Of a stretch of DNA of 64,000 nucleotides, positions 39,313 through 58,589 are shown piece after piece. Position 1 is the stretch's first letter. Every line of letters begins with the position of its first letter. This DNA comes from an uncultured beta proteobacterium (GTDB lineage Bacteria > Pseudomonadota > Gammaproteobacteria > Burkholderiales > Rhodocyclaceae), in NCBI GenBank assembly GCA_963727115.1, contig CAVSFS010000011.1, forward strand, positions 89,149-153,148, written 5' to 3'. The position numbers and the translations under genes were made by a program. The notes under the pieces are model-generated. The model searched no databases, was not told where the DNA came from, and saw only the letters and a program-made list of their open reading frames with translations.

Positions 39313-39326
39313 GCCGCTAAAACGTA

Positions 39327-39355
39327 TTGCAAGCGCGTGATTATTCGAGGATAAT
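39327..39355 (+). promoter_or_regulatory. Sigma-70 promoter candidate for rpmE (TTGCAA-N17-GATAAT)
   Basis: TTGCAA at 39327-39332, a 17-nt spacer, and GATAAT at 39350-39355, about 55 nt upstream of the rpmE ATG. Confidence 0.45.
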
Positions 39356-39409
39356 CATGCGTTTCCCAGATCGGCCACATCCGCCGGTCGCTTGCTTAAA
39401 GGACAAAAG

Positions 39410-39634: not shown

Positions 39635-39655
39635 TCGGTTTGAGCCACTCAGGAA

Positions 39656-39681
39656 AGGGCAGCCGCAGGGCTGCCTTTTTC
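39656..39681 (+). terminator. Intrinsic terminator after rpmE
   Basis: Sequence gggcagcc-gca-gggctgcc followed by ttttt. Confidence 0.75.
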
Positions 39682-39715
39682 ATTTACAGGCTCATTTACA
39701 GACCTTCCGCTTTGC

Positions 39716-41338
39716 ATGTCTGATTTCGCCACCCGCCTCCGTTCCGGTATCCGCCTGCCCCCGGTCGGCTGGGCACTGGCCGCCATGCTGGCGTTCTACG
39801 TTCTGGCCGGCCTTTTCGGGCGCGACCCATGGAAGGGCGAAGACGCCATCCACATCGGCACCGCCTGGCACATGCTGCACTACGGCGACTGGCTGTCACC
39901 CGACCTCGCCGGGCGCCCCTTTCACGAACCACCGCTCTACTACTGGACCGCCACCCTGACCGGCAAGGCGCTCGGCTGGCTGTTGCCGCTGCATGAAGCA
40001 ATTCGCCTGGCCAGTGGCGTCTGGGTCGCGCTGGCACTGGTCGGAATCTACTATGCCGGCCGCGAACTCCACGGGCAGGAAAGCGCCGCCGCCAGCCCGC
40101 TCCTGCTCGCCGGTTGTGTCGGCCTTCTCATCCATGCCCACGATGCCCAGCCGATGCTGGTCGCCGTCGCTGCCTACAGCGGCGCCATCGGTGCGCTTGC
40201 CGCACTGGGCCGCCGGCCACGGCTGGCGGGTACGTTCTACGGTCTCGCCATCGCCGCCTGTCTGCTCGGCACCGGGATTGCCCCGACCCTGCCACTGCTG
40301 GCCATCGCGCCGCTTGCCTGGTGGCTGTCCGCTGATCGGCGGAAGGCGCTGCAGGCCCTTGCCCTCGGCCTTGGTCTCGCGCTGATCCTCATTCTTCCCT
40401 GGCCGCTCTTGCTGCTCGCCTTCGAACCCTCGCGCTTCCACGGCTGGCTGAACACCGAACTGGTCCCGCTCAAGACGCCCTTCTCATTCAGCGGCGCCGG
40501 GCGCTTTCTGTTGCTGCTGCCATGGTTCGCCTTCCCGGCCCTGCCGCTGGCAGCCTGGGCACTGTGGACGCGGCGCAAGGCGCTACAGGCGATGCCGCAG
40601 TTGCTGCCCCTGGTCTTCCTGCTGCTGACCTTCCTGATGCTTGCTCTCGCTTTCCGGCCACGCGAGATCCCCGCCCTGCTGATGCTACCGCCGCTCGCCT
40701 TGCTGGCGACGCCGGGCGCCCTGACATTGCGTCGCGGCGCCGCCAACGCCTTCGACTGGTTTGCCATGATGACCTTCAGCGTCTTCGCGGTGCTGGTCTG
40801 GGTTGGTTGGTCGGCCATGGTACTCGGCTGGCCGGAACGGCTGGCCAAACGGGTCGTTGTTCTGCGTCCGGGTTTTGTCGGGCACTTCGAGATCGTCGCG
40901 TTTGTCATCGGCATTCTGGCATCGATCTGGTGGCTCTGGCTGATCGTCACCGCCCCGCGCTCGCCTTATCGCAGCCTCACCCACTGGACGCTCGGTTTCA
41001 CGACCATCTGGCTGATGGCGACCTCGCTGGTCCTGCCCTGGTTCGACTATGGCAAAACCTATCGTCCGGTCGCCGAGGCCATTGCCCGGGCTTTACCTGA
41101 CGACCACGGCTGCCTGGCCGAACGCGGCCTCAACGACACCCAGCGCGCCTCGCTCGCCTATTTCATCGGGATCGAACCCGATGCGGCGGATACCGCCGCC
41201 GGCAAACAATGCGACTGGCTATTGGTCACCGGCAACAACAAACAGGAACTGGCTGCCCCGGAAGGCACATGGACCCGCGCCTGGGAGGGCAATCGCCCCG
41301 CCGATCGCAGGGAAAAATTCCGCCTCTACCGGCGCTGA
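39716..41338 (+). CDS. Polytopic membrane glycosyltransferase, GT39/ArnT-PMT-like
   Basis: 540 aa with at least 10 predicted helices. The N-terminal loop RDPWKGEDAIHIGTAWHMLHYGDWLSPDLAGRPFHEPPLYYW resembles the ArnT/PMT_2 family. Confidence 0.6.
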   Translation: MSDFATRLRSGIRLPPVGWALAAMLAFYVLAGLFGRDPWKGEDAIHIGTAWHMLHYGDWLSPDLAGRPFHEPPLYYWTATLTGKALGWLLPLHEAIRLASGVWVALALVGIYYAGRELHGQESAAASPLLLAGCVGLLIHAHDAQPMLVAVAAYSGAIGALAALGRRPRLAGTFYGLAIAACLLGTGIAPTLPLLAIAPLAWWLSADRRKALQALALGLGLALILILPWPLLLLAFEPSRFHGWLNTELVPLKTPFSFSGAGRFLLLLPWFAFPALPLAAWALWTRRKALQAMPQLLPLVFLLLTFLMLALAFRPREIPALLMLPPLALLATPGALTLRRGAANAFDWFAMMTFSVFAVLVWVGWSAMVLGWPERLAKRVVVLRPGFVGHFEIVAFVIGILASIWWLWLIVTAPRSPYRSLTHWTLGFTTIWLMATSLVLPWFDYGKTYRPVAEAIARALPDDHGCLAERGLNDTQRASLAYFIGIEPDAADTAAGKQCDWLLVTGNNKQELAAPEGTWTRAWEGNRPADRREKFRLYRR

Positions 41339-41349
41339 GCACCCTGAAA

Positions 41350-41895
41350 TCAGGCTTTCAGGAAGTGTTCCCGGTAATACTTGAGTTCGTCGATCGACTC
41401 GTGGATATCGGCCAGCGCCGTATGCCGGCCCTTCTTCTTGAAGCCCTTGTAGATTTCCGGTTGCCAGCGCTTGCACAACTCCTTCAGGGTGCTGACGTCG
41501 AGATTGCGGTAGTGAAAGAAAGCTTCCAGCGTCGGCATGTAGCGGGCCATGAAACGGCGGTCCTGGCCGATCGAGTTGCCGCACATCGGCGAGTGTCCCT
41601 TCGAGGAATATTTCTTCAGGAATTCCAGGGCCAGCAGTTCAACCGCAGCCTCGTCCAGCGTCGATGCCTTGACCTTGTCGATCAGGCCGGAACGGCCATG
41701 CGTCTTCTGATTCCACTCGTCCATGGCGGCCAGCGCTGCGTCCGACTGGTACACGACCCAGGCCGGCGACTCAGCGACCATTTCCAGTTCCGAATTGGTC
41801 ACCACCATCGCCATTTCGATAATCCGGTCGCCATCCGGATTAAGACCGGTCATTTCCATATCCAGCCAGACGAGGTTGTTTGCGTTGCCTGTCAT
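41350..41895 (-). CDS. orn: Oligoribonuclease
   Basis: ORF 41350-42024 trimmed to ATG 41895 ([29 protein letters not shown]...). DEDDh exonuclease motifs are present, including [17 protein letters not shown]. Confidence 0.92.
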
Positions 41896-41951
41896 ATAAT
41901 TGCCCAACACCTTGAAAACCAGCATTTTCTCATAGCTTCGCACCCAGTTTC

Positions 41952-43196
41952 TTGACCGCCGACTTTTCCTTCCTGTTTCTTGCAGCTTTCGGCCTGACGC
42001 TCGCCGGCCGCCTGTGGCTGACACTGCGCCAGATTCGCCACGTCGCCGCGCACCGCGCCGCCGTCCCGGCCGATTTCGCCGAGCGCATTCCGCTCGCCGC
42101 CCACCAAAAAGCCGCCGATTATACGGTCGACCGCAACAAGCTGGCCATTTTGACGACGCTGATCGACGCCGTGCTGCTGCTCGCCCTGACGCTCGGCGGC
42201 GGACTCGCCTGGCTGCACGATTTCTGGAGCGCCCGCCTCGCCGGCCTGCCCTACGGCCTGGCGCTGATTTTCAGCGTGCTGGCGATTTCGGCGCTGATCG
42301 ACCTGCCGTTTGCGCTCTACCGCCAGTTCGTCATCGAAGCCCGCTACGGCTTCAACCGCATGACGCTCGGACTCTTCTTCGGCGACCTGCTCAAACACAC
42401 GCTGATCGGTATCGTGATCGGCGCCCCGGTCATCCTCGCCGTGCTCTGGCTGATGGGCGCCATGGGCAGCGCCTGGTGGTTCTGGGTCTGGCTGTTCTGG
42501 TGCGCCTTCAACCTGCTGATCCTGTTCATCTACCCGACCTGGATCGCGCCGCTGTTCAACAAGTTCGCGCCGCTCGAAGACGGCGAGATGAAGTCGCGCA
42601 TCGAAGCACTGCTCGTGCGCTGCGGCTTTACATCGTCCGGCCTGTTCGTGATGGACGGCTCGAAGCGCTCCAGCCACGGCAACGCCTATTTCACCGGCTT
42701 CGGCAACAACAAGCGCATCGTCTTCTTCGACACCCTGCTCTCCCGCCTCGCAGCGCCGGAAATCGAAGCGGTGCTGGCGCACGAACTCGGCCATTTCCGC
42801 CGCCGCCATGTCGTCAAGCGCATCGTTTTCATGTTCGCCGCCGCCCTCGGCCTGCTCTGGCTGCTCGGCCAGTTGATCGATGCGCCATGGTTCTACAACG
42901 GGCTCGGCGTGCCGGCAAAAAGCACGGCGCTGGCGCTCATACTTTTCTTCCTCGTCATTCCGGTGTTCACCTTCCCGCTCAGCCCGCTGACGAGCCAGCT
43001 CTCGCGCCGCCACGAGTTCGAGGCCGATGCCTACGCCGCCGAACACACAGCGGCCGCCGACCTCAGCCGCGCGCTGGTCAAGCTCTATGAGGACAACGCG
43101 GCGACCCTGACCCCCGACCCGCTGCATTCGCTGTTCTATGACTCCCACCCGCCGGCCGCGCTGCGCATCGCCCGGCTGCAGGCGGCAGCGCACTGA
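41952..43196 (+). CDS. M48-family zinc metallopeptidase (Ste24/HtpX-like, membrane)
   Basis: 414 aa with multiple transmembrane helices and the HEXXH motif ([12 protein letters not shown]). Confidence 0.85.
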
Positions 43197-44062
43197 TGGA
43201 AGGCCGCGTCGTCGCTGCCCACGGGCGTCAATACGTCGTCGAACTGCCCGACGGCAGCTTGCTGCCCTGCTTCACGCGTGGCAAGAAAAGCGATGTCGCC
43301 TGCGGCGACCGCGTTGACATCCAGCGCACTTCCGATGACCAGGGCGTTATCGAGGCGATCCAGCCGCGCACCAGCCTGCTCTACCGTTCGAACGAGATCA
43401 GACAGAAGCTGATTGCCGCCAACGTGGATCAGGTCGTCATCGTCGTCGCCACCGAGCCGGGGTTCTCCGACGAACTGGTGACGCGCGCCCTGCTCGCCGC
43501 CGAGAGCGAGGAGATCGAGCCGCTGATCGTCCTCAACAAATGCGACCTGACCGAACGCGTTGCGGCTGCCCGCGCGCAACTCGCCGTCTTCGCCAACCTT
43601 GGCTACCGCGTTCTCGAACTGTCCGCCCTTGACCATGCCGAGGATCTACGCCCCGAGTTACAGGGCTACACCAGCGTGCTGGTCGGCCAATCCGGCATGG
43701 GCAAGTCGACGCTGGTCAATGCGCTGGTCCCGGAAGCCCGCGCCGCGACGCGCGAGATTTCATCGGCGCTCGATTCCGGCAAGCACACGACGACGCATGC
43801 CACGCTCTACCATCTCGATGCCGACAGCGCGCTGATCGATTCGCCGGGACTGCAGGAATTCGGCCTCGGCCATCTCGACCGTCAGGAAATCGAATACGCC
43901 TTCCGCGAATTCCGCCCCTACGTCGGGCAATGCCGCTTCCGCGACTGTCGCCACGACCGCGAGCCCGATTGCGCGCTGACTGCCGCCGTCGCCGCCGGCA
44001 AGATCGACCAGCGGCGCTTCGCCGTCTATCACCGCATCATGGGCACGCAGCGCACGGACTGA
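43196..44062 (+). CDS. rsgA: Ribosome small-subunit-dependent GTPase A
   Basis: 288 aa with circularly permuted GTPase motifs (LNKCDL, GQSGMGKSTLVNAL) and the C-terminal zinc cluster CRFRDCRHDREPDC. Confidence 0.92.
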   Translation: MEGRVVAAHGRQYVVELPDGSLLPCFTRGKKSDVACGDRVDIQRTSDDQGVIEAIQPRTSLLYRSNEIRQKLIAANVDQVVIVVATEPGFSDELVTRALLAAESEEIEPLIVLNKCDLTERVAAARAQLAVFANLGYRVLELSALDHAEDLRPELQGYTSVLVGQSGMGKSTLVNALVPEARAATREISSALDSGKHTTTHATLYHLDADSALIDSPGLQEFGLGHLDRQEIEYAFREFRPYVGQCRFRDCRHDREPDCALTAAVAAGKIDQRRFAVYHRIMGTQRTD

Positions 44063-44077: not shown

Positions 44078-45292
44078 TCAGGATAGTCCGCTCAACCAGG
44101 CACGCGCGCCCTGCCCGGCGGCGCGTCCCGTGGCAAAGCAGGCGGTAAGCAGGTAGCCGCCGGTCGGCGCCTCCCAATCGAGCATCTCACCGGCGCAGAA
44201 AACCCCCGGCAGGTCGCGCAGCATCAGGTTCGCGTCGAGCGCCTCGAAGACAACGCCGCCGGCCGTGCTGATCGCCTCGTCGATCGGTCGCGCCGCCGTC
44301 ACCGGCAGCGGCAGATGCTTGATTGCCGCGGCCAGGTGGTCTGTCGCGGTCAACGTCTCGGGAGGCAGCAATTCGCGCAACAGGCCGGCCTTGACGCCTT
44401 CGATCCCGGCCCGCCGGCGCAGGTGGTTGGCCAGCGAATCGCGGCCACGCGGCCTTGCCAAATCGGCGGTCAGGCGCGCCAGCGTCCGGCCCGGCGCCAG
44501 ATCGAGATACAGCACGGCGTGACCTTTGGTGGCCAGCGCATCGCGCAGCGGCGCCGAGAGGGCATAGACCAGCCCACCTTCGATACCTCCATCCGTGATG
44601 TTGAACTCGCCCTGCTGGCGTCGCCCGGCCACCGAGCCGATCACCGGCTTGACCGGCTGGCCGGCGAAGCGCTCGCTGAAATGCGCGCTCCACGCCACGT
44701 CGAAGCCGCAATTGGCTGGCTTCAAAGGGGTGACCTGAATGCCGCGCTCGGCCAGCAAGGCCACCCAGGCGCCGTCCGAACCGAGCTTTGCCCAACTGCC
44801 GCCGCCGAGCGCCAGAATCACCGCGTCGAAAGCCAGCAGTTTCTCGCCTTCCGGCGTCGCGAAACGCAGGGCGCCATCGGCGGCCCAGCCCAGCCAGCGA
44901 TGGCGCACATGAAACTGGACGCCGGCCCCGCGCAGGCGATGCAGCCAGGCGCGCAACAGCGGCGCCGCCTTCATTTCGGAGGGAAAGACGCGGCCCGAAG
45001 AGCCGACGAAGGTCGCGATGCCGAGGCCGCCGATCCATTCGCGCAATTGTTGCGGCCCGAAGGCTTCCAGCAGCGGCGCGATCACCGTCTGCCGCGCGCC
45101 GTAACGGCCGACGAAAACGGGCATGGGTTCGGAATGGGTGATGTTCATGCCGCCCTTGCCAGCCATCAGGAACTTGCGGCCAAAAGAAGGCATGGCATCG
45201 AAAACAGCCACTTCCAGACCGTTGACCATGGCAAGCTGTTCGGCCGCCATCAAGCCGGCCGGCCCGCCACCGACAATGGCGACGCGCGTCAT
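44078..45292 (-). CDS. FAD-dependent flavoprotein of the HI0933/BaiN-like family
   Basis: 404 aa with an N-terminal Rossmann motif (VAIVGGGPAGLMAAEQL) and a C-terminal GEMLDWEAPTGGYLLTACFATGRAAG. Its start codon overlaps the stop of the upstream transglutaminase gene by 1 nt. Confidence 0.7.
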   Translation of the reverse strand: MTRVAIVGGGPAGLMAAEQLAMVNGLEVAVFDAMPSFGRKFLMAGKGGMNITHSEPMPVFVGRYGARQTVIAPLLEAFGPQQLREWIGGLGIATFVGSSGRVFPSEMKAAPLLRAWLHRLRGAGVQFHVRHRWLGWAADGALRFATPEGEKLLAFDAVILALGGGSWAKLGSDGAWVALLAERGIQVTPLKPANCGFDVAWSAHFSERFAGQPVKPVIGSVAGRRQQGEFNITDGGIEGGLVYALSAPLRDALATKGHAVLYLDLAPGRTLARLTADLARPRGRDSLANHLRRRAGIEGVKAGLLRELLPPETLTATDHLAAAIKHLPLPVTAARPIDEAISTAGGVVFEALDANLMLRDLPGVFCAGEMLDWEAPTGGYLLTACFATGRAAGQGARAWLSGLS

Positions 45293-46263
45293 CAGGGCTG
45301 GAGCGCCCCGGATTCAGCGACTCTCCCGGACGACGCCGCGATTGCGGGTGGCTCTTCCTCGTCGAGTGGCGTGACAGTCACCTCGACCTCCGGCTCCGCC
45401 CCGCCACCGCCAAGGATGATGCCGCGCAGCGGGGAGATGTCGCCGAAATCACGGCCGATGGCGACCGTGATGTGTTCGGTGTCGGGCAGCAGGTTGTTGG
45501 TCGGATCGAAATCCACCCAGTCGTCGGCAAATCCGGGCGCATAGACCGAGACCCAGGCATGCGATGCATCGGCGCCGATCAGGCGCGGCTTGCCCGGCGG
45601 CGGCCGGGTCAGCAGGTAGCCGCTGACGTAGCGCGCGGAGAGACCTAGCGCCCGCAGGCAGGCAATCATCAGGTGGGCAAAGTCCTGGCAGACGCCGCGC
45701 TTCTTCTCCAGCACTTCCATGACCGGCGTTGACACCGTGGTCGCCTCCGGGTCGAACTTGAATTCCTTGAATATCTTGGCCATCAGCGTCCGGGCGCCGA
45801 CCAGCACCGGCGTATCGGGCGGGAAGCAGTCAGCGGCGTATTGCGCGAGCTCATGCTTGATGCGGACATGGGCGCTCTCGAACAGGAAGCGCATCGCATC
45901 AAGATCTTCCGGCCTTGGCGCCATTGCGTTGTAGGCCAGCCGGTCATGCACCTGCTCCCAGGGCAGCGACTTCTCGAGATGCACCGGCAGATGCGGCTGC
46001 ACGGCGATGGTCATCGCCGAGCGGATGATCAGCCCCTCATGCGGCGCGTGAAAGGCGATCCAGGTCACCGGATTGCCGAAGGCGTCCTGCCCGTCGCGCC
46101 GCCAGGTCGGCTGCGGGGCGATGTCGATGCGCTGCTCCTCGACCTGCTGCCAGGCCAGGACGCGCGGCGAGAGATGCAGTTGCTGCTGCGACAGCGACAC
46201 CGCGCTGCCGTATTCGTAGCGCGTCTCGTGCAGCACATGGTAGCGGATGGCTTGGCGATCCAT
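45292..46263 (-). CDS. Transglutaminase-like cysteine peptidase-fold protein (Bact_transglu_N plus transglutaminase core)
   Basis: 323 aa. A Cys-His-Asp triad is plausible: RGVCQDFAHL, ASHAWVSVY, VDFDPTNN. Confidence 0.8.
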   Translation of the reverse strand: MDRQAIRYHVLHETRYEYGSAVSLSQQQLHLSPRVLAWQQVEEQRIDIAPQPTWRRDGQDAFGNPVTWIAFHAPHEGLIIRSAMTIAVQPHLPVHLEKSLPWEQVHDRLAYNAMAPRPEDLDAMRFLFESAHVRIKHELAQYAADCFPPDTPVLVGARTLMAKIFKEFKFDPEATTVSTPVMEVLEKKRGVCQDFAHLMIACLRALGLSARYVSGYLLTRPPPGKPRLIGADASHAWVSVYAPGFADDWVDFDPTNNLLPDTEHITVAIGRDFGDISPLRGIILGGGGAEPEVEVTVTPLDEEEPPAIAASSGRVAESGALQP

Positions 46264-46265
46264 GA

Positions 46266-48785
46266 CTAGAGGGCCATCGTCTGCCGGCTGACATCCGACA
46301 CATGCGTGAAGTAGCGCATGGCCAGCCAGTCGGAAAGCTCGACCGAGGCGGCGTCGAGTTCGTCCAGCAGGGTCGCCAGATCCTCACAAGACGAGCAGTT
46401 GCGGCACTGGTTGAACTGCAGGTGTTCGAAGCGACCGAGATCGAAAGCGCGCAGGCGCTTGAGCGCATCGCTCATCCGGGCGTCGCTGGACGCACCGAGT
46501 TCGCGCATCATCCGCTCGAGGTAGCGGGCCAGCACGCTGGCCTGGAAAACCACGCCGTGCGGGTTGCTGTCGTCGAAAACCAGCAGGTCGAGGACCGGCA
46601 GCAGTTCCGGAAGGCGCGAATAGCGCGAACGGTAGGTAATGATCGAATCGGCCAGTTCGAGCAGCCACTCCAGCGCGCCAGGGCCACGCGTTAACGGCAT
46701 GCGCAGGAAATTGGCCAGCGCCTGGGCGAGGAAGGACAGTCGTTCCAGGCGGCGACCGATGATCAGGAAACGCCAGCCGTCGTCGCGCGTCATGTTGTCC
46801 ATCGCAAAGCCGGTCAGCGACGACGAGACGCCGAGTACGCGGTCGAGGAAGGCGATCGCCTCGGTCAGCGTCGGGTGGCGCTTGAGCGCAGCCTGCTGCT
46901 CGCGCTGCAGGCGGTTCAGCGAGTGCCAGTGATCGAGCGACAGGCGCTCGCGAACGTGGGTCGCCGACCACATGACGTTGCGGATCGTGCCGGCCAGACT
47001 GCCCGGCTGCTCCGGATCGTAGATCGCCTCGAGCAGCGCGTGTTCGCTGCCCGCCCTGATTTCGTCATCTTCTTCGGGAGCGGGCAGGATATGCAGGCGC
47101 AAGGCAAGCTCCAGCGCCGACTCGACCGCCGGCGTTTTCTCGCCGCCGGCCTCGACGAGGCGGCTGAGGGCGACGCGCAACATGCGCGCGCTGTCGTCGA
47201 AGCGTTCCGAGTAGCGGCCGAGCCAGAACAGGTTTTCGACGACGCGCGAAGTCAGGTTGGCGCCGGCGCGCACGATTTCGCGCACGCCGAGCGAGGGCGT
47301 GAGCATCGTGAATTCGCTGACCGGGCCTTGCGCCAGCACCCAGGCATCCTTGGACGAGCCACCGCGCTGCATCGAGATGATGCGGGCGTTGGCGCCGGTG
47401 GCGACGCGGGCCAGCCCCCCCGGCATCACCGAATAGCCGTCGGGCGTCGTCACCGCATAGGCGCGCAGGCCGACCGGCCGCGCCAGCAGGCGCCGCTCGT
47501 GCGAGCGGCTCCAGCCCGGCGCCTGCGACAGTTCGACCATCTCCTGCGCGACATAGGCATGCGGCCGCGCCTCGATGCGCTGCAGCATCTCGACCCGCGC
47601 CGCGCCCTTCAACTCGTAGCCGAAGACCGGATCCATGCGCTGCGACGGATAGGCCGGCTTGATCACCAGGTCGTCGAAATTCTCGCGGACATACTCGAGC
47701 GCCGGCTTCTCGCCGCACCACCAGGTCGCCACCGAAGGCATCGCCAGTTCCTCGCCCAGCAGTTCGCGGCAAATGGCCGGCAGGAAGCCCATCAGCGCCC
47801 CCGAAGCGAGCATGCCGCTGCCCAGTGCGTTGGCGACGACGACCCGGCCGGCGCGCGCGACATTGATCAGGCCGGGAATGCCGAGCGCCGAATCGCCGCG
47901 CAGTTCGAGCGGATCGCAGAAGGCATCGTCCTGGCGGCGCAGGATGACATGGACGCGCTTGAGGCCGCGCAGGGTCTTGAGATAGACCGTATCGCCGCGT
48001 ACCGTCAGGTCCTGGCCCTCGACCAGCGGGTAGCCGAGATAGCGCGCCAGGTAGGCGTGCTCGAAATAGGTTTCGTTGTACGGCCCCGGCGTCAGCAGCA
48101 CGACATGCGGCTGCTCGTCGCCGTCGAGCGGCGCGAGGGCGGCGAGGCCATCCTGCTGGTCGCGGAAGAAATCGGCGACATGCTGGACGTGCAAGTCGCG
48201 GAACATCTCGGGAAAGACGCGCGAAACGATCAGCCGGTTTTCCAGCGCGTAGCCGGCTCCCGAGGGCGCCTGCGTGCGGTCGGCGATGACCCACCAGCGG
48301 CCGTCCGGCGAACGCGCCAGGTCGACCGCATAATGATGCAGCCAGACGCCGCCGGGCGGCTTGATCCCCTGACACGGCCACAGGTAACCGTGCTGGCCAT
48401 AGACCAGCGCCGGTGGCAGCAGGCCTTCCGACAGCAGTTTCTGTTCGCCGTAGAGGTCGGCCAGCATGGCGTTGAGCAGCGTCGCGCGCTGCGCCACGGC
48501 GGCCGAGACCTCGGCCCACTCGTCAGACGGGATGATCAGCGGCAGCGGATCGAGCGCCCACGGGCGGTCCGAACCCTTGGGGTCGGCGTAGACGTTGTAA
48601 GTGACCCCGTTTTCCTGAATCCGCCGGTCGACGAATTCGAGCCGCTCCTGCATGTCTTCCGGCGCCACCGAATCGAGATGGCCGAGAAATTTCCGCCAGT
48701 GCGGACGCACCGCCCCTTCTTCCGCCAACATTTCGTCGTAACGGTGGGGGCTATGCGGATAGATCGCGAGTAGGGTACGGGCCAT
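46266..48785 (-). CDS. Fusion protein: circularly permuted ATP-grasp (type 2) plus alpha-E domain
   Basis: 839 aa. The N-terminal half is collinear with the stand-alone ATP-grasp at 53154-54566 (YNETYFEHAYLARYLGYPLVEGQDLTV, RRQDDAFCDPLELRGDSALGIPGL). The C-terminal half resembles the alpha-E protein at 52204-53151 (NLFWLGRYSERFDDSARMLR). Confidence 0.8.
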   Translation of the reverse strand: MARTLLAIYPHSPHRYDEMLAEEGAVRPHWRKFLGHLDSVAPEDMQERLEFVDRRIQENGVTYNVYADPKGSDRPWALDPLPLIIPSDEWAEVSAAVAQRATLLNAMLADLYGEQKLLSEGLLPPALVYGQHGYLWPCQGIKPPGGVWLHHYAVDLARSPDGRWWVIADRTQAPSGAGYALENRLIVSRVFPEMFRDLHVQHVADFFRDQQDGLAALAPLDGDEQPHVVLLTPGPYNETYFEHAYLARYLGYPLVEGQDLTVRGDTVYLKTLRGLKRVHVILRRQDDAFCDPLELRGDSALGIPGLINVARAGRVVVANALGSGMLASGALMGFLPAICRELLGEELAMPSVATWWCGEKPALEYVRENFDDLVIKPAYPSQRMDPVFGYELKGAARVEMLQRIEARPHAYVAQEMVELSQAPGWSRSHERRLLARPVGLRAYAVTTPDGYSVMPGGLARVATGANARIISMQRGGSSKDAWVLAQGPVSEFTMLTPSLGVREIVRAGANLTSRVVENLFWLGRYSERFDDSARMLRVALSRLVEAGGEKTPAVESALELALRLHILPAPEEDDEIRAGSEHALLEAIYDPEQPGSLAGTIRNVMWSATHVRERLSLDHWHSLNRLQREQQAALKRHPTLTEAIAFLDRVLGVSSSLTGFAMDNMTRDDGWRFLIIGRRLERLSFLAQALANFLRMPLTRGPGALEWLLELADSIITYRSRYSRLPELLPVLDLLVFDDSNPHGVVFQASVLARYLERMMRELGASSDARMSDALKRLRAFDLGRFEHLQFNQCRNCSSCEDLATLLDELDAASVELSDWLAMRYFTHVSDVSRQTMAL

Positions 48786-48864
48786 CGAGCCTGAAAGGAA
48801 ACGCGGACGGGCCGTTGCCAGCCAGAACAGCGCGGCCCGCTGACCGCGCCTGCATCTTTAGCGG

Positions 48865-51800
48865 TTAAAAACGCCGCAAGTCTAGCGTAAACGGGTGCTC
48901 GGCGCTGACTTCCGGCGCCGCGACCTGAATCTTGCCGGGTGTATGCCCGAAGCGGAAGAAGCGGGCCAGACGCCGGCTTTCGGCCTCGAAGGCATTGACC
49001 GGGAAGGTATCGAAGCTGCGGCCGCCAGGGTGGGTCACATGGTATTGACAGCCGCCCAACGAACGCTGCATCCAGGTATCGACCAGGTCGAAGACCAGCG
49101 GCGCATGGATGCCGATGGTCGGATGCAGGCACGAGTCCGGCTGCCAGGCGCGATAACGCACGCCAGCGACGAACTCGCCGTTGGTCCCGCTGTTCTGCAG
49201 GGGCACCGGCACGCCATTGCAGGTCAGTACATAGCGGTCTGGCGCCATCCCCCTGATCTTGACCTGTACCCGCTCGACCGACGAATCGACATAGCGCACG
49301 GCACCGCCGGCCGCCCCCTCCTCGCCCATGACATGCCATGGCTCGAGGGCGTGGCGCAGTTCGAATTCGATGCCCTTGACCGCGAAGTCGCCGTATTTCG
49401 GGAAACGGAATTCGAAGTGTGGCGCGAACCATTCCGCCTTGAACGGGAAACCGGCGGCCTGCATTTCGTCCATGACATCGCGGAAATCCTGCTCGACATA
49501 GAAAGGCAGCATGAAACGGTCGTGCAGGTCGGTCCCCCAGCGCGCCAGGCGCGCCGGAACGTAGGGCTCTTCCCAGAAGCGCGCGATCATCGCGCGCAGC
49601 AACAATTGCTGGGTCAGCGACATGCGGGCATGCGGAGGCATTTCGAAGGCCCGCAACTCGAGCAGGCCAAGGCGGCCGGTCGGACCATCCGGGGAGTAGA
49701 GCTTGTCGATGCAGAACTCGGAACGGTGCGTGTTGCCGGTAACGTCGGTCAGTAGGTGGCGGAGGACGCGGTCGACCAGCCACGGCGCGATGTAATCGCC
49801 GACCGGCGGGATCTGGCTGAAGGCAATTTCCAGTTCGTAGAGGCTGTCATTGCGCGCCTCGTCAACGCGCGGCGCCTGGCTGGTCGGCCCGATGAACAGG
49901 CCGGAGAACAGGTAGGAAAGACTCGGATGGTTGTGCCAGTAGGCGATCAGGCTGCGCAGCAGATCGGGGCGGCGCAGGAAGGGCGAATCGCTGGGTGTCG
50001 CGCCGCCGAGAACGAAGTGGTTGCCGCCGCCGGTTCCGGTGTGGCGCCCGTCGACCATGAATTTTTCGCTGGTCAGGCGCGAGACATGGGCCGCATCGTA
50101 GAGGTGGGTGGTCTGGTCAACCAGTTGATCCCAGCTCTTCGCGGGGTGGACGTTCACCTCGATGACACCGGGATCGGGGGTGACGCGGAAGTTGGTCAGG
50201 CGCGGGTCGCCTGGCGGTTCGTAGCCCTCCATGATGATCGGCATGGTCAGTTCTGCCGCGGTCGACTCTACGGCAGCGACCAATTCCAGGTAATCGTCCA
50301 GCGTCTCGGTCGGCGGCATGAAGATGTAGAGCCTGCCTTCGCGCGCCTCGGCAGACATCGCCCGCCGGCTTACCCAGGCGGCAGATTCCTTGAATCCGGG
50401 GACCGTGTCGGGCGCCTTGCCACGGCCGGCGACCGCCTCAGCCACGACAACAGGCGCCAGCGTTGCCCACGCTTCAGTCTGGCACACGATTTCGGCATGG
50501 CTGCGCAGCGGCACCGTTGCCTGGAACGGGTCAGGCGGGTTAACGTAAGGATAATCGCTCTTGGCCGCCCACGGCTGCGAATCGAGCGGCAAACGGTAGC
50601 CCATCGCCGAGTCGCCCGGGAACAGGTAGCAGCGTTGCGCGCGCAGGAACCACGGACCGGTCTCCCACTGTTTGCGTTCGTTCTTCATGACCGGCAGCAC
50701 GTGACCGACCGTGTGGGTCAGGCCCTGCGTGAAGATTTTCATCAGGCGTTCGCGCTCGAGCGGGTCGTCGAGGCGCGAATCGAAGGGGTCGACGTTGTCC
50801 GGCAGGCGGCGCTCGCGCCACATGTAGTAGTAGGCATCCTCGAAGGCCGGGAAGACGTACCGGGGATCGAGCGCCAGCTTTTCGGCGATGCGCTTCATGA
50901 AGCGCTCGGCGTGCTCGCTGGTCGCGCCGTAATCCTTCTTTTCGTCGGCGTAGAGATCCGGCGAATTCCAGATCGGCTCGCCATCCTTGCGCCAGAAACA
51001 GTTGAGGCTCCAGCGCGGCAGTTGCTCGCCGGGGTACCACTTGCCCTGACCGAAGTGCATCAGGCCGTTCGGCGCATACCGCTCGCGCAGGCGGTGAAAC
51101 AGTTCGGCGGCGAAAATCCGCTTGGTGGGGCCGAGCGCGGCGGTGTTCCATTCGGCGCCATCCGGGTCGTTGACCGCGACGAAGGTCGGCTCGCCGCCCT
51201 GGGTCAGACGAACATCCAGTTTCTGCAGGGTGGCGTCGATCTGGTGGCCAAGGCCCTCGATCTCGACCCACTGTGCGTCCGAATAGGGCTTGGTGACGCG
51301 CGGCGCTTCCCAGATGCGGGTCACCTGCATGTGATGTTCGAAGGTGGTTTCGCACTTGTCGATGCCACCGCTGACCGGCGCGGCGGACGCCGGTTGCGGC
51401 GTGCAGGCGAGCGGAATGTGCCCTTCGCCGGCGAACAGGCCGGACGTCGGATCGAGGCCGATCCAGCCCGCCCCCGGCAGATAGACTTCGCACCAGGCGT
51501 GGAGATCGGTGAAGTCGACTTCCGTGCCGGAGGGTCCGTCGAGCGATTTGACATCTGCGGTCAACTGGATCAGATAGCCGGAAACGAAGCGCGACGCCAG
51601 ACCGAGGTGGCGCAGTATCTGGACCAGCAGCCAGGCCGAGTCGCGACACGAGCCGGAACGCTTCCGTAAGGTCTCTTCCGGCGTCTGCACCCCGGGTTCC
51701 ATGCGGATCGTGTAGTTGATGTCCTTCTGCAGCCTGGCGTTGAGCGCGACCAGGAAGTCTACGCTGCGCGTCTTCTCCAGTGAAATGCCATCGAGGTACT

Positions 51801-52185
51801 TCTGGAACAGCGGCGTCGCCGGGAGCTTGAACAGATAGGGCGCCAGTTCGTGGCGTTCCCACGCCTCGTAGGTGAAGGGGATTTTCTCGGCATGCGGTTC
51901 GAGAAAGAAATCGAAGGGGTTGATGACCGACATTTCGGCGACCAGATCGACCTCGATGCGGAATTCGCGCGTCTTCTCGGGAAAGACCAGACGGGCCAGA
52001 TAATTGCCCTGCGGGTCCTGCTGCCAGTTGATGAAATGCTGCTCCGGCCCGACCTTCAGCGAATACGAAAGAATGCGCGTCCGGGAATGGGGGCATGGAC
52101 GCAGGCGGACGACCTGCGGCGCGAGATTGACCAGGCGGTCGTAGGAATAATGGGTAACGTGATTCAGTGCAACGTGGATGGACAC
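48865..52185 (-). CDS. Large transglutaminase-family protein (N-terminal transglutaminase core plus DUF2126-type extension)
   Basis: 1106 aa starting MSIHVALNHVTHYSYDR, with SGSCRDSAWLLVQILRHLG, DLHAWCEVYLPGAGWIGLDPTSG and a long conserved C-terminal region. Confidence 0.8.
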   Translation of the reverse strand: MSIHVALNHVTHYSYDRLVNLAPQVVRLRPCPHSRTRILSYSLKVGPEQHFINWQQDPQGNYLARLVFPEKTREFRIEVDLVAEMSVINPFDFFLEPHAEKIPFTYEAWERHELAPYLFKLPATPLFQKYLDGISLEKTRSVDFLVALNARLQKDINYTIRMEPGVQTPEETLRKRSGSCRDSAWLLVQILRHLGLASRFVSGYLIQLTADVKSLDGPSGTEVDFTDLHAWCEVYLPGAGWIGLDPTSGLFAGEGHIPLACTPQPASAAPVSGGIDKCETTFEHHMQVTRIWEAPRVTKPYSDAQWVEIEGLGHQIDATLQKLDVRLTQGGEPTFVAVNDPDGAEWNTAALGPTKRIFAAELFHRLRERYAPNGLMHFGQGKWYPGEQLPRWSLNCFWRKDGEPIWNSPDLYADEKKDYGATSEHAERFMKRIAEKLALDPRYVFPAFEDAYYYMWRERRLPDNVDPFDSRLDDPLERERLMKIFTQGLTHTVGHVLPVMKNERKQWETGPWFLRAQRCYLFPGDSAMGYRLPLDSQPWAAKSDYPYVNPPDPFQATVPLRSHAEIVCQTEAWATLAPVVVAEAVAGRGKAPDTVPGFKESAAWVSRRAMSAEAREGRLYIFMPPTETLDDYLELVAAVESTAAELTMPIIMEGYEPPGDPRLTNFRVTPDPGVIEVNVHPAKSWDQLVDQTTHLYDAAHVSRLTSEKFMVDGRHTGTGGGNHFVLGGATPSDSPFLRRPDLLRSLIAYWHNHPSLSYLFSGLFIGPTSQAPRVDEARNDSLYELEIAFSQIPPVGDYIAPWLVDRVLRHLLTDVTGNTHRSEFCIDKLYSPDGPTGRLGLLELRAFEMPPHARMSLTQQLLLRAMIARFWEEPYVPARLARWGTDLHDRFMLPFYVEQDFRDVMDEMQAAGFPFKAEWFAPHFEFRFPKYGDFAVKGIEFELRHALEPWHVMGEEGAAGGAVRYVDSSVERVQVKIRGMAPDRYVLTCNGVPVPLQNSGTNGEFVAGVRYRAWQPDSCLHPTIGIHAPLVFDLVDTWMQRSLGGCQYHVTHPGGRSFDTFPVNAFEAESRRLARFFRFGHTPGKIQVAAPEVSAEHPFTLDLRRF

Positions 52186-52203
52186 AGATTCTCTCCGTAA
52201 CGA

Positions 52204-53151
52204 TCAGGCAGCTTCGGCCACGGGCAATAGAAAATCCTTGCTGATGCCGTCGCCAAGCATATAAATGCGATCCATGAAGTCGGTGAGCCATTCGTGCAGG
52301 CCCTGCTCCAGGATATCCTCGACCCGCGCATAGTGCAGTTGCGCATGCAGCAGGCCCGCGTGACGCTGGGTTTCACCGGATTGCCGGTTGGCGATCAGAT
52401 CGAGATTCTTGACCACGCCGTTCATGCAGAAATGCAGCGAACGCGGCATGTCCATCCTCAGGATCAGCAATTCGGCAACCCGCTCGGGCGTGATCACGTC
52501 ACGGTACGCCTTGCGATAGACTTCGAACGCCGACACCGAGCGCAGCAGCGCGCTCCACTGGTAGAAATCCGTGGCCCCCTCGTCGCCGTGCGGACGCAGG
52601 ACGTGGTATTTGACATCGAGGATGCGCGCCGTATTGTCGGCGCGTTCCAGCAGCGTGCCGAGACGGATGAAGTGGAAGGCCTCGTCCTGCAGCAGCGTGC
52701 CCAGCGTCGTGCCGCGCGACAGCGAGGAGCGCATCTTGACCCACTCGAAGAACTCGCCGACTCCCGCGTTGAATATCTGTTCGAAGCTCTTTTCGCGTGC
52801 TTCCAGCCAGGTCGCGTTCATCGTCTCCCACATTTCGGAGGTCACCGTGCCGCGCACGGCATGGGCATTCTCGCGTGCCAGGCGCAGGCAACTGTGGATC
52901 GACATATGGTTGCCGGTATCGCTGACCATGAAACGCAGCACATTTTCGGCGTTGACCGCGGAATACCGGGTCGCGAACTCTTCCTCGAGGCTGTTCAGGG
53001 CGATGATGGCGTTCCAGTTCTGATTCGCCGCTTCCAGCGACTGCGGCACCAGCGACATCTGCCAGGTGACGTCGAGCAGGCGTGCAAGGTTCTCGGCCCG
53101 CTCGATGTAGCGGGACATCCAGAAAAGATGGTCGGCGGTACGGGATAGCAT
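52204..53151 (-). CDS. Alpha-E domain protein
   Basis: ORF 52204-53268 trimmed to ATG 53151 (MLSRTADHLFWMSRYIERAENLARLLD...), 2 nt after the ATP-grasp stop. Confidence 0.8.
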   Translation of the reverse strand: MLSRTADHLFWMSRYIERAENLARLLDVTWQMSLVPQSLEAANQNWNAIIALNSLEEEFATRYSAVNAENVLRFMVSDTGNHMSIHSCLRLARENAHAVRGTVTSEMWETMNATWLEAREKSFEQIFNAGVGEFFEWVKMRSSLSRGTTLGTLLQDEAFHFIRLGTLLERADNTARILDVKYHVLRPHGDEGATDFYQWSALLRSVSAFEVYRKAYRDVITPERVAELLILRMDMPRSLHFCMNGVVKNLDLIANRQSGETQRHAGLLHAQLHYARVEDILEQGLHEWLTDFMDRIYMLGDGISKDFLLPVAEAA

Positions 53152-53153
53152 GA

Positions 53154-54566
53154 TCAGTCCTCCAGAATCCAGGTATCTTTGGTGCCGCCGCCCTGCGACG
53201 AATTGACGACCAGCGAACCCTTGGTCAGCGCGACCCGGGTCAGGCCGCCCGGCACCATGCTTACGCACTCGCCGGACGACAGCACGAAGGGTCGCAGATC
53301 GAGGTGGCGTGGCGCGATGCCTTCATCGACGAAAGTCGGGCAGTTGGACAGCGCCAGCGTCGGCTGGGCAATGTAGCCGTCCGGCTTGGCGATCAGCAAC
53401 TGGCGGAAGCGTTCGATCTCCTCCTTGCTGGCGGCCGGGCCGACCAGCATGCCGTAACCGCCGGCGCCATGGACTTCCTTGACCACCAGTTCGGGCAGGT
53501 GATCGAGCACGTACTTGAGATCATCCGGCTTGCGACACATGTGGGTCGGCACGTTGTTCAGCTTCGGCTCCTCGCCAAGGTAGAAGCGGATCATGTCCGG
53601 CACGTAGGGGTAGATCGACTTGTCGTCGGCGACGCCGGTGCCGATCGCGTTGGACAGCGTCACGTTGCCGGCCTGGTAGGCCCTGAGGATGCCCGGCACA
53701 CCCAGCGAGGAATCCTCACGGAAGACCAGCGGGTCCATGAAGTCGTCGTCGATGCGCCGGTAGATCACATCGACGCGCTGCGGCCCCTGCGTCGTGCGCA
53801 TATAAACCACCTCGTCCTTGACGAAGAGATCGCGGCCTTCGACCAGTTCGACACCCATCTGCTGGGCGAGGAAGGTGTGCTCGAAATAGGCGCTGTTGTA
53901 GGCGCCCGGCGTCAGCACGACCACGGTCGGATCACTGACCCCCTTGGGCGAGACGGCGCGCAGCTTTTCCAGCAGCAGGTCGGGATAGTGCTGAACCGGC
54001 GCCACCTTGTGTTTGGCAAAGAGCTCCGGGAACAGCCGCATCATCATCTTGCGATCTTGCAGCATGTAGGAAACACCCGACGGCACGCGCAGGTTGTCCT
54101 CCAGCACGTAGAACTCGCCGGCGCCGGCGCGCACGATGTCAATCCCGGCTATATGGGCATAGATACCGCCGGGCAGGTCGACGCCCTTCATGACCGACCG
54201 GTACTGCGCGTTGTTGAGCACCTGCTCGGCCGGTATCTTGCCCGCCTTGAGAATTTCCTGACCATGGTAGATGTCGGCAAGGAACATGTTGAGCGCCTTG
54301 ACCCGCTGGCGCAGGCCCGCCTGCATGGATTTCCATTCGGCCGAAGGAATGATGCGCGGAATAATGTCGAAGGGAATCAGGCGTTCCTTGCCCGCCTCCT
54401 CGCCGTAGACGGCAAAGGTGATCCCGACGCGATGGAAGGCCAGATCGGCCTCGGCCCGCTTGCGGGCGATGCGTTCGGGCGGGGTCGCCTTGAGCCATTC
54501 ATCATAGGCCTGGTAATGAGCACGGACGCCGCCGTTGGCGTCGATCATTTCGTTATAGAAGTTCAT
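53154..54566 (-). CDS. Circularly permuted ATP-grasp protein (type 2)
   Basis: 470 aa: MNFYNEMIDANGGVRAHYQAYDEWL...YNSAYFEHTFLAQQMGVELVEGRDLFV...RRIDDDFMDPLVFREDSSLGVPGIL. Confidence 0.82.
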   Translation of the reverse strand: MNFYNEMIDANGGVRAHYQAYDEWLKATPPERIARKRAEADLAFHRVGITFAVYGEEAGKERLIPFDIIPRIIPSAEWKSMQAGLRQRVKALNMFLADIYHGQEILKAGKIPAEQVLNNAQYRSVMKGVDLPGGIYAHIAGIDIVRAGAGEFYVLEDNLRVPSGVSYMLQDRKMMMRLFPELFAKHKVAPVQHYPDLLLEKLRAVSPKGVSDPTVVVLTPGAYNSAYFEHTFLAQQMGVELVEGRDLFVKDEVVYMRTTQGPQRVDVIYRRIDDDFMDPLVFREDSSLGVPGILRAYQAGNVTLSNAIGTGVADDKSIYPYVPDMIRFYLGEEPKLNNVPTHMCRKPDDLKYVLDHLPELVVKEVHGAGGYGMLVGPAASKEEIERFRQLLIAKPDGYIAQPTLALSNCPTFVDEGIAPRHLDLRPFVLSSGECVSMVPGGLTRVALTKGSLVVNSSQGGGTKDTWILED

Positions 54567-54604: not shown

Positions 54605-54620
54605 AGCAGTTTCCGTGCCA
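54605..54620 (-). promoter_or_regulatory. Sigma-54 (-24/-12) promoter candidate for the ATP-grasp operon
   Basis: The minus strand reads TGGCACGGAAACTGCT, against the consensus TGGCACG-N4-TTGCW. GG and GC are at the canonical spacing, and the -12 GC lies about 40 nt upstream of the ATG at 54566. Confidence 0.5.
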
Positions 54621-54802
54621 CGGAATAAACCCACATAAAATCAGCGGATTGAAATATCGTGCTCACAAGCCACGCCCCACTGCGGTGCGTGCAACTCCAA
54701 AGTGGTGCAACATCTACAGGGGATACGGCCCAAGGCCGCCCGGTGGACCATGGCCCGAGGCCACGCAGAGGCCATGCCGCCTTCACCGGCACCGCCGGTG
54801 AT

Positions 54803-54834
54803 ATAAAAAAACCCACCGGATCGCTCCGGTGGGT
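54803..54834 (-). terminator. Intrinsic terminator after the thiolase gene
   Basis: 10-bp stem acccaccgga / tccggtgggt with loop tcgc, followed by a T7 run on the minus strand (the complement of aaaaaaa at 54804-54810). Confidence 0.8.
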
Positions 54835-54861
54835 TTCTGTCCGGCTAAAACGCCGAAGCGA

Positions 54862-57911: not shown

Positions 57912-58589
57912 CTAAAATCGTTTCTTGAGGGTCATGGAACTGCCGTCGCGCTGCATTTCCATCCGGTTCAGAAAACTCATGCCGAGAAGGGCCATGGGCA
58001 TCTCCGTCTGGTGTATCAGCGCATCCACATTGTGCAGCGTCACATCGCCAATCCGCACGGTATCGAGTTGAATCTTGCTCACTATACTCTGGCCGTTGGC
58101 GGTCTGGGTCATGCCCTTCTGGCCACGATTGAAATCGAGCCCGATCCGGCGGGCATCGCTCGCGCCCAGGGAAATCATCGTCGCCCCGGTATCGACCAGG
58201 AATCGCACCGAAACGCCGTTGATCGTCCCGGTGGTGTAGAAATGCCCCTGATTATCCGCCGTCATGACGACCTTGCCCGAGCCATCGGCCGTCGTAGCGC
58301 CGATGGCGTGCTGGCCGACGCGCAACGGGCGCTTCTTGCCGCCGATTTCGATGACGACCTGATCACCCTGGACCGAGACCACTTTCACGCCGTCGAGCGA
58401 TTGTCCGACCGCGACCGACTGCGGCTCGCCGCCGTTGACCATCAACATTGCCTTGCTGCCCATGACGCCGGCGAGGCCGACATCCTGCGCATCGGCGCTC
58501 CCGGAAATCAGGCAAAGCGCCAGCGCCAGCGGCGTACAATGACGGGTCAATTTTCCGGACGTTTCTGCAGCCATGCTACCTGTTGCCAT
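57912..58589 (-). CDS. Retropepsin-like (clan AA) aspartic protease, exported
   Basis: 225 aa with a signal-like N-terminus (LALALCLISGSADA) and the catalytic motif FLVDTGATMISL. An alternative start lies at 58574. Confidence 0.7.
   Translation of the reverse strand: MATGSMAAETSGKLTRHCTPLALALCLISGSADAQDVGLAGVMGSKAMLMVNGGEPQSVAVGQSLDGVKVVSVQGDQVVIEIGGKKRPLRVGQHAIGATTADGSGKVVMTADNQGHFYTTGTINGVSVRFLVDTGATMISLGASDARRIGLDFNRGQKGMTQTANGQSIVSKIQLDTVRIGDVTLHNVDALIHQTEMPMALLGMSFLNRMEMQRDGSSMTLKKRF

Follow-up and report, generated by a model that had tools for sequence, protein, structure and literature searches.

Two gene units of predicted ATP-dependent ligases and transglutaminase-like amidases form a probable nitrogen-starvation operon in an uncultured Azonexaceae bacterium

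The DNA analyzed here (hereafter the window) is a 64,000-nucleotide (nt) stretch of contig CAVSFS010000011.1 from an uncultured beta proteobacterium (assembly GCA_963727115.1, positions 89,149 to 153,148 of the forward strand). It contains six consecutive minus-strand genes, labeled G1 to G6 in the order of transcription, that form a real and intact operon encoding putative ATP-dependent amide ligases along with cysteine amidases (Table 1). The genes are tightly packed and co-directional, and the coordinates and junctions given in the original prediction, which was made from these letters alone, agree with the open reading frames (ORFs) and with direct reading of the sequence. G1 and G2 are separated by 2 nt (TGA-tc-ATG), G2 and G3 by an 18-nt spacer that carries a GGAGAG ribosome-binding site between TGA and GTG, G3 and G4 by 79 nt, and G4 and G5 by 2 nt (TAG-tc-ATG); G5 and G6 overlap by 1 nt (TGATG). 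Exact sequences of all six proteins are present in public metagenome-assembled genomes (MAGs) of Azonexus/Dechloromonas (Azonexaceae, Betaproteobacteria), on a 166-kb contig. Upstream, the operon appears to be bounded by a hairpin with a T-run that looks like an intrinsic terminator; this hairpin is absent from the output of a simple terminator scan. The downstream neighbor of G6 is a convergent rsgA gene.

Table 1. Genes and regulatory features of the six-gene block, with positions in the window.
Feature	Position	Strand	Size or location	Description	Basis
G1	53154..54566	(-)	470 aa	circularly permuted ATP-grasp ligase	Pfam
G2	52204..53151	(-)	315 aa	Alpha-E protein	Pfam
G3	48865..52185	(-)	1106 aa, GTG start	Bact_transglu_N + Transglut_core + DUF2126	Pfam
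G4	46266..48785	(-)	839 aa	circularly permuted ATP-grasp + Alpha-E fusion	Pfam
G5	45292..46263	(-)	323 aa	Bact_transglu_N + Transglut_core	Pfam
G6	44078..45292	(-)	404 aa	FAD flavoprotein, HI0933-like superfamily, TIGR03862	Pfam + NCBIfam
Sigma-54 motif	54605..54620	(-)	38 nt upstream of G1 ATG	sigma-54 (-24/-12) promoter motif TGGCACGGAAACTGCT	
NtrC-type sites	54673..54709	(-)	~60-90 bp upstream of -24 element	two enhancer-like sites, TGCACCACTTTGGAGTT and CGCACCGCAGTGGGGCG	
Gap hairpin	48792..48850	(-)	in 79-nt G3-G4 gap	GC-rich hairpin, then ttcctttc	sequence + fold
Upstream hairpin	54805..54835	(-)	3' of upstream thiolase gene	cccaccgga-gcga-tccggtggg + T-run	read from sequence

All of the domains originally claimed were recovered by hidden Markov model (HMM) searches at very high scores. 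G1 matches the Pfam models CP_ATPgrasp_2 (554 bits, 2.4e-166) and CP_ATPgrasp_1 (520 bits, 3.5e-156), and both models are matched in full length by G1 and by the N-terminal half of G4 (E = 1e-104 to 1e-166). Alpha-E is matched by G2 (329 bits, 5e-98) and by residues 511–826 of G4 (8e-64), and the DUF2126 match of G3 covers 826 of 826 model positions (1357 bits). The Cys-His-Asp triads of both transglutaminase domains are intact, as had been proposed: C180/H229/D245 of G3 is invariant among 26 orthologues, and C192/H235/D253 of G5 aligns with it. Among solved structures, residues 15–484 of G4 match PDB entry 3N6X (E = 1.4e-91), a structural-genomics entry deposited as a 'putative glutathionylspermidine synthase', and the relatives of G5 are 3ISR and 6G49 (TgpA). 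A search with G2 found no sequence-related solved structure for Alpha-E.

The description of G3 as a transglutaminase/DUF2126 protein was correct in its domains but incomplete, as the protein is not just a transglutaminase and also appears to have a carboxylate-amine ligase-type domain. The Rv2566 family was previously described, by profile searches, as a transglutaminase-like domain combined with a carboxylate-amine ligase domain (PMC2588565). An AlphaFold model of G3 based on a shallow alignment (12 sequences, 74–85% identity) had a predicted local distance difference test score (pLDDT) of 40.5; with 50 diverse representatives, pLDDT was 90.8 and the predicted template modeling score was 0.90. 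The top Foldseek match of this model is 3ISR (E = 2.6e-13, template modeling score [TM-score] normalized to target 0.73), which has the transglutaminase fold. Next is YbdK/GCS2 1R8G (probability 0.99, E = 0.016), followed by weaker matches (E = 0.02–0.13) that include several glutamine synthetases, gamma-glutamylmethylamide synthetase (GmaS), and the depupylase Dop (7OXV). The model supports, though not strongly, the published assignment of the DUF2126 part to a carboxylate-amine ligase-type domain. Counting this domain of G3, the block would have three ATP-dependent ligase domains, representing two folds, plus a pair each of Cys-His-Asp and Alpha-E domains and a single flavoprotein.

The original prediction regarded the block as one three-domain logic present twice, once split and once fused. 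Amino acid sequence identity is 35% between G1 and the N-terminus of G4, 23% between G2 and the C-terminus of G4, and 27% between G5 and the N-terminus of G3, which indicates that the split and fused sets are ancient paralogues and not the outcome of a recent duplication. The domains are as described, but the division into modules is not, as the conserved unit is G3-G4-G5 and G1-G2 is separate. This division comes from a comparison of 80 species-representative loci around G3 homologues, in which ORFs were assigned to the six window proteins. The loci (cited below by L numbers) are from Rhodocyclales, Burkholderiales, Pseudomonas, Marinobacter, Serratia, Steroidobacteraceae, and one Verrucomicrobiota MAG, and G3 identity is 61–91% across two proteobacterial classes and that MAG. 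The family is large, with about 3,200 DUF2126 clusters at 50% identity (E ≤ 1e-30). Wherever the contig is long enough, G3, G4, and G5 are contiguous and co-directional: G4 is found in 76 and G5 in 69 of the 80 loci, and all misses are at contig ends, with L055 (no G5) as the sole exception. G3-G4-G5 is therefore a true conserved unit.

G1-G2 is a separate and mobile partner unit, usually with its own transcription unit. It lies within 10 kb of G3 in 33 of the 80 loci, and its arrangements, five in all, include directly upstream and co-directional (14 loci), divergent and adjacent (5), downstream (6), and on the opposite strand 2.6–5 kb upstream (8). The remaining 47 loci, among them all those of Pseudomonas, lack G1-G2 within this distance. 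In L032, L034, L065, L062, and L075, a small transglutaminase-like gene belonging to G1-G2 comes after G2 and completes the classical three-gene operon. No such small transglutaminase of G1-G2 is found in the whole window, and the next gene after G2 is G3, with its intact transglutaminase domain. Accessory genes were surveyed within 3.5 kb of the cluster among ORFs of at least 110 aa, and the sole family that recurs beside G3-G5 across orders is G1-G2, whether or not the small transglutaminase accompanies it. Other neighbors were rejected as accessory genes because they represent genus-level synteny only (a radical-SAM gene, azurin, and LOG in Pseudomonas; ComEC in Comamonadaceae; generic hybrid kinases elsewhere).

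The tandem in the window is a lineage-specific fusion of these two units, because closer relatives have G3-G6 without G1-G2 and the full gene order is common to L001 and L002 only. In L003, L004, L081, and L083–85, G3-G4-G5-G6 occupies the same chromosomal site without G1-G2 upstream, and a sensor-kinase gene is found there instead. Similar tandems of both units are present in Burkholderia, Marinobacter, Ideonella, and Rhizobacter. It may be that G1-G2 and G3-G6 are two functionally independent systems that have a common regulator and were juxtaposed by chance, an explanation to which we give roughly one chance in four. It fits the six loci just named, where a separate sigma-54 motif precedes G3-G6 and G1-G2 is missing from the surrounding 10 kb, the Pseudomonas loci without G1-G2 nearby, and the divergence of the paralogues (23–35% identity). 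However, chance juxtaposition accounts poorly for the proximity of G1-G2 to G3 in 33 species and in several arrangements, or for its position as the only recurrent neighbor of G3-G5 across orders. Moreover, both units have the same promoter type, and because G1-G2 of the window lacks a dedicated transglutaminase, it may rely on that of G3 or on G5.

A sigma-54 promoter had also been predicted, and the motif TGGCACGGAAACTGCT is present 38 nt upstream of G1, as the sole sigma-54 match in the window at one mismatch or fewer. When the 5–130 nt before the first gene of each unit were searched across loci, a sigma-54 motif was found in 64 of 97 cases, compared with 1 of 97 on the opposite strand of the same windows and 4 of 90 before internal genes. 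Conservation of the motif spans Beta- and Gammaproteobacteria, and its position follows the arrangement of the units. It precedes G1 and not G3 when G1-G2 abut G3, precedes G3 when G3 is first, and precedes both when the units are apart; in all Pseudomonas loci, TGGCATAAGTCTTGCG is found at about -37 before G3. The two NtrC-type sites farther upstream (TGCACCACTTTGGAGTT and CGCACCGCAGTGGGGCG) are kept in the window, L001, and L002. Across the family, NtrC-type dyads located 20–200 nt upstream of sigma-54 motifs occur with at most two mismatches in 14% of cases (0.9% of shuffles) and with at most three in 55% (15.5% of shuffles). This family-wide enrichment is clear, and the motifs would be compatible also with other enhancer-binding proteins. 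Regulation may differ in the Steroidobacteraceae-type loci L015, L016, L042, and L048, where G1 and G3 are divergent and about 200 nt apart (at about 9800–10000) with no sigma-54 motif on either side, and in Marinobacter, where the sole sigma-54 motif is 266–324 nt upstream of G1.

Published expression data for homologous operons, including RNA-seq, are available from two genera. In Burkholderia cenocepacia H111, I35_5080-83 are strongly reduced in an ntrC mutant, are common targets of sigma-54 and NtrC, and rank among the loci that depend most strongly on both (values of -6.0 to -9.4); they are annotated as DUF404/407 (permuted ATP-grasp), DUF403 (Alpha-E), transglutaminase-like, and 'large' transglutaminase-like proteins (PMC5491218). 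In Pseudomonas putida, the Anbu operon PP_2685-2688 is up 11- to 37-fold under nitrogen limitation, which was attributed to NtrB/NtrC (PMC7801951, PMC3325844, PMC8050072, PMC5666114). The promoter offered as an additional handle on the cluster is real, but the regulation itself has already been published for homologues (PMC5491218, PMC7801951, PMC8050072, PMC3325844). By analogy, the operon in the window would belong to the nitrogen-starvation regulon and is very probably induced by nitrogen starvation. One promoter probably serves all six genes: transcription would start at the NtrC-type enhancer and sigma-54 promoter before G1 and read through to G6. We hold with high confidence the broader conclusion that two units make up this ligase/amidase operon and that it is regulated by nitrogen starvation.

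The longest gap in the block, between G3 and G4, contains the GC hairpin noted originally. The hairpin exists, but taken alone it is not significant (z = -0.56 for 111 nt and -1.44 for the 79-nt gap), and it was not flagged by a simple terminator scan. Structured G3-G4 gaps nevertheless recur in relatives, with a median z of -1.6 and z < -2 in 28 of 65. Clear forms with a hairpin and T-run are found in L003–L005, L007, and L017, and the gap hairpins of Pseudomonas L014, L021, and L031 have apparent compensatory changes, as judged by eye. Sigma-54 motifs before G4 are at chance level only in the 80-locus survey. The likeliest role of the hairpin is that of a partial terminator or mRNA-stability element, which would probably lower the expression of G4-G6 relative to G1-G3. 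Partial termination after G3 is consistent with the Burkholderia study, which lists genes only up to G3 (PMC5491218).

Within the G3-G5 triad, insertions seem to be tolerated at the G3-G4 junction only. Inserts of 0.6–3.8 kb are present there in several Burkholderiales and Accumulibacter (L058:13513-15860, L066:13513-17352, L039:4850-7936, L054:13336-14830, and L034:5411-6040), and those of L058 and L066 are a gene for a PAS/HisKA/receiver hybrid sensor kinase. Some Pseudomonas gaps contain long near-perfect inverted repeats, TGTGGGAGC...GCTCCCACA (L023:13291-13436, L025:13291-13445, and L033:13291-13518), which are REP-like (fold z = -4 to -12); other Pseudomonas have a shorter hairpin.

G6 was proposed to be coupled to the ligase cluster. 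It scores 580.9 bits against TIGR03862 (cut-off 242.65; 375 of 376 model positions) and also passes the cut-off of TIGR00275, at half that score (289 bits vs. 184). The protein has an HI0933-like Rossmann domain with inserted barrel/H2TH domains in Pfam, and its PDB relatives are 2I0Z, 4CNJ, 3V76, and 2GQF. The coupling holds within one family: G6 follows G5 in four of the 80 loci, all Azonexaceae, and in five further Azonexaceae contigs. In these nine contigs, the order of G5 and G6 and the 1-nt overlap are kept, and the flavoproteins are 73–88% identical. The coupling does not extend to the other 76 loci, where G6 is absent from the cluster, and so the flavoprotein was recruited to the cluster only in Azonexaceae. 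A search for G6 homologues gave relatives that all have at least 77% identity. Within Azonexaceae, G6 travels with G3-G5 and not with other neighbors, because the overlap and order are kept where the downstream flanks differ (rsgA is absent from L002–L004, and three sensor genes are inserted in L081). A flavoprotein of Pseudomonas sp. ML96 was rejected as a cluster partner and is considered a coincidence, as it is about 2 kb away on the opposite strand with a PAAR-domain gene and two unannotated ORFs in between.

Whether G6 participates in the chemistry of the cluster or is a passenger was rated about equal. As a passenger, to which we assign slightly less than an even chance, G6 would be a housekeeping FAD enzyme (e.g., an RNA dihydrouridine synthase like E. 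coli YhiN/RdsA) that landed after G5 in an ancestor of Azonexaceae. The narrow distribution of the arrangement and the opposite strand of the lone nearby Pseudomonas copy fit this explanation, as does the passing of the TIGR00275 cut-off. In addition, the HI0933-like superfamily is not isofunctional and has three characterized activities, namely the 23S rRNA dihydrouridine synthase RdsA/YhiN, the bile-acid reductase BaiN, and aminoacetone oxidase (PMC11317573). G6 has the same domains and related structures as these enzymes, but belongs to the separate subfamily TIGR03862, for which no characterized member was found in the literature searched. Retention of the overlap and order in nine contigs despite changed flanks argues against a passenger, and the amine oxidase activity of one characterized family member (4CNJ) would be in keeping with a release of nitrogen. 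Cultured isolates of Dechloromonas and Azonexus belong to the Azonexaceae, so the flavoprotein could become a chemical handle for the product; Dechloromonas sp. H13, D. denitrificans, and Azonexus fungiphilus DSM 23841 are cultured relatives that carry this G3-G6 block.

For the function of the operon as a whole, a pathway that ligates and trims a small molecule or short peptide during nitrogen starvation, with a role in nitrogen economy, is the reading that we tentatively favor, at a little under even odds. The operon would be a composite in which G1-G2 (permuted ATP-grasp and Alpha-E) is joined to G3-G4-G5, units that are usually transcribed separately, and in which G3 would contribute a transglutaminase-like amidase fused to a glutamine-synthetase/GCS2-type ligase. 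The ligases would activate a carboxylate as an acyl-phosphate with ATP and then join an amine, and the Cys-His-Asp proteins would hydrolyze or transfer the resulting amide. Such a cycle would run in the cytoplasm, would have a short peptide or a small molecule with nitrogen as its substrate (gamma-glutamyl, glutathione, or polyamine-amide type), and would capture, re-route, or release nitrogen under ammonium scarcity. A small-molecule substrate is favored because the closest solved ligase relatives are small-molecule enzymes, because no tag gene fits in the operon (gaps of 2, 18, 79, 2, and -1 nt leave no room), because the Ntr regulon is dominated by scavenging chemistry, and because G3 is extraordinarily conserved. 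The conservation of G3 (61–91%) suggests a universal substrate. For the Rv2566 family, glutathione-like peptide synthesis was likewise favored, and no Pup-like ORF was found (PMC2588565). A Yersinia homologue of the ATP-grasp protein releases phosphate from ATP (PMC6376114).

Several points weigh against this small-molecule pathway or the steps on which it is built. Enzymes of the transglutaminase fold mostly act on proteins or peptides. The ligase-type Foldseek matches of the DUF2126 part are weak (E = 0.016–0.13; target-normalized TM-score 0.26–0.38), and DUF2126 has no solved relative by sequence, as profile HMMs of 26 and 50 G3 homologues match PDB sequences in the transglutaminase domain only. 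The two NtrC-type sites are imperfect, with three mismatches each to TGCACC-N5-GGTGCA, and we infer rather than observe a single G1-G6 transcript in the host. Proteins of the Yersinia operon formed no detectable complex when co-expressed (PMC6376114). In agreement with the original prediction, no substrate, product, or phenotype of any member was found in the literature searched.

Other evidence points to proteins as substrates. The original attribution of these families to the surveys of Iyer, Aravind, and co-workers is correct (PMC2588565, PMC3495828), and the later view of this group, predicted for operons of ATP-grasp, Alpha-E, and transglutaminase-like proteins, is peptide tagging of proteins (PMC3495828). 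The last gene of related operons encodes Anbu, a homologue of the proteasome, and nitrogen limitation induces these operons (PMC6376114, PMC5666114, PMC8050072). If so, the ATP-grasp and glutamine-synthetase-like ligases would tag proteins in the manner of RimK, tubulin TTL, or pupylation, and the transglutaminase-like proteins would remove the tags or cleave tagged proteins, leading to turnover and recycling of amino acids under nitrogen starvation. We regard this as the main alternative, at somewhat under one chance in three. It gains from the presence of Dop among the structural matches of G3, from the protein- or peptide-directed transglutaminase-fold relatives 3ISR and TgpA, and from Alpha-E, a possible adaptor without catalytic precedent. 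It loses from the lack of room for a tag gene and the small-molecule chemistry of the closest solved ligase relatives, and neither Anbu nor another peptidase recurs beside G3-G5 among the ORFs surveyed (at least 110 aa). Furthermore, no peptidase activity was detected for Anbu, and the missing complex with its operon partners counts against tagging as well (PMC6376114).

A bolder version of the small-molecule and tagging explanations would treat the six genes of Azonexaceae as one complete nitrogen-starvation pathway of a new kind, or as a proteasome-independent tagging system for nitrogen recycling. In such a pathway, a defined amide or isopeptide conjugate would be formed by the three ligase domains on some protein or other molecule that is ubiquitous in cells. 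Its transfer or trimming would fall to the two transglutaminase-like domains, and the TIGR03862 flavoprotein would oxidize the attached amine and release ammonia. This is improbable, but if true, it would provide the first function for Alpha-E, DUF2126, and TIGR03862 at once.

Least probable, with only a few chances in a hundred, is the idea that the block is a cluster for a secondary metabolite or encodes a protease of the secreted or virulence type. The protease part of this explanation follows M. tuberculosis Rv2569c, a 'serine protease' cleaving E-cadherin, which is presumably a G5-type transglutaminase-like protein beside Rv2566/Rv2567. Proteolysis by recombinant Rv2569c was reported, in a paper that states just a predicted cysteine-protease domain; however, the activity is insensitive to E-64 and N-ethylmaleimide, which contradicts a Cys-His-Asp fold (PMC11081392). 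The cluster is also conserved in free-living environmental bacteria and is nitrogen-regulated, and genes for transporters, NRPS, or precursor peptides do not recur next to it in the survey of ORFs of at least 110 aa within 3.5 kb. A role in anti-phage defense was rejected, as PADLOC gave no match beyond a trivial Rossmann match.

Elsewhere in the window, a retropepsin-like aspartyl protease (PF13975 / PF13650; 225 aa) is encoded at 57912-58589 (-), about 3 kb upstream of the operon; the genes in between encode a thiolase and a CobD/AmpE-like membrane protein, and no link to the cluster is apparent. A 540-aa ORF at 39716-41338 (+) has no Pfam match. A gene of equal length is found at the same place in Dechloromonas sp. 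H13 (L083:13955-15577), beside an RNase T-domain gene and upstream of the L31 and rho genes. The frequent frameshifts that had been claimed for other parts of the window were not seen in the 34875-44062 part, where the ORFs (659, 419, 540, 414, and 288 aa) have the same lengths as the gene calls of a syntenic Dechloromonas isolate (L083/L084). The region 22000-28000 has a GC content of up to 0.70 and a GC skew of +0.15 to +0.19 (0.59–0.67 and about 0 in the rest of the window), with long overlapping ORFs on both strands.

The known systems closest to the block resemble its two units. In the Anbu operon (P. putida PP_2688-2685; Yersinia bercovieri), the first two genes have the same order as G1-G2 of the window. 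PP_2685-2688 are induced by nitrogen limitation and NtrC (PMC7801951, PMC8050072), and the window has a sigma-54 promoter. Unlike in that operon, G2 of the window abuts G3 directly, and no dedicated small transglutaminase follows it. No Anbu gene is among the six genes of the block, all of which are otherwise assigned, although no exhaustive search for Anbu was made in the rest of the window. The gene order of M. tuberculosis Rv2566 / Rv2567 / Rv2569c matches that of G3-G4-G5. G3 in the window is followed by the ATP-grasp/Alpha-E fusion and then by the small transglutaminase-like protein. G3 itself has the architecture of Rv2566 (PMC2588565). In the Burkholderia locus L065, G1-G2 likewise precedes the triad in tandem, but an extra small transglutaminase lies between G2 and G3, and the flavoprotein is absent. 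BCAM1233-1236 and the following genes of B. cenocepacia form a homologous cluster that depends on NtrC and sigma-54 (PMC5491218).

Similar logic, in which an ATP-dependent carboxylate-amine ligase is paired with a cysteine amidase, is found in glutathionylspermidine synthetase/amidase and in the gamma-glutamylation pathways by which amines are used (PuuA/PuuB/PuuD, Pau, and GmaS). Ligase and amidase act there on one type of bond, and the Puu and Pau pathways include an FAD oxidase as well. G4 resembles 3N6X, and G3 resembles GmaS and glutamine synthetase (weak Foldseek matches). In contrast to these systems, which have CHAP or GATase hydrolases, the window has transglutaminase-like ones; its ATP-grasp is circularly permuted, and its Alpha-E has no counterpart. 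Pupylation, which supports mycobacterial survival of nitrogen starvation, offers another parallel. G3 is assigned to the same ligase superfamily as PafA and Dop (PMC2588565; weak Foldseek match to Dop 7OXV), but the block has no Pup-like gene, proteasome, or AAA ATPase.

Both units have been described computationally (PMC2588565; PMC3495828, citing Iyer et al. 2009), and the tandem form is present and transcriptionally characterized in Burkholderia (PMC5491218). In the literature searched, no paper naming 'DUF2126' and no newer paper on the function of the Anbu operon were found; a 2026 preprint on GABA-trehalose synthesis uses Rv2411c and Rv2567 solely as negative controls. The copy in the window is thus an ordinary member of a widespread, computationally described system, with the missing small transglutaminase and the added flavoprotein as local peculiarities, and alone it is no more tractable than the Pseudomonas or Burkholderia models. 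The puzzle is nevertheless real and long-standing, as DUF2126 is conserved and lies in the nitrogen-starvation regulon of model bacteria. To what was known, the present comparison adds a defined conserved unit, a common promoter architecture, G1-G2 as the sole recurrent partner, and Azonexaceae as a lineage with an added flavoprotein.

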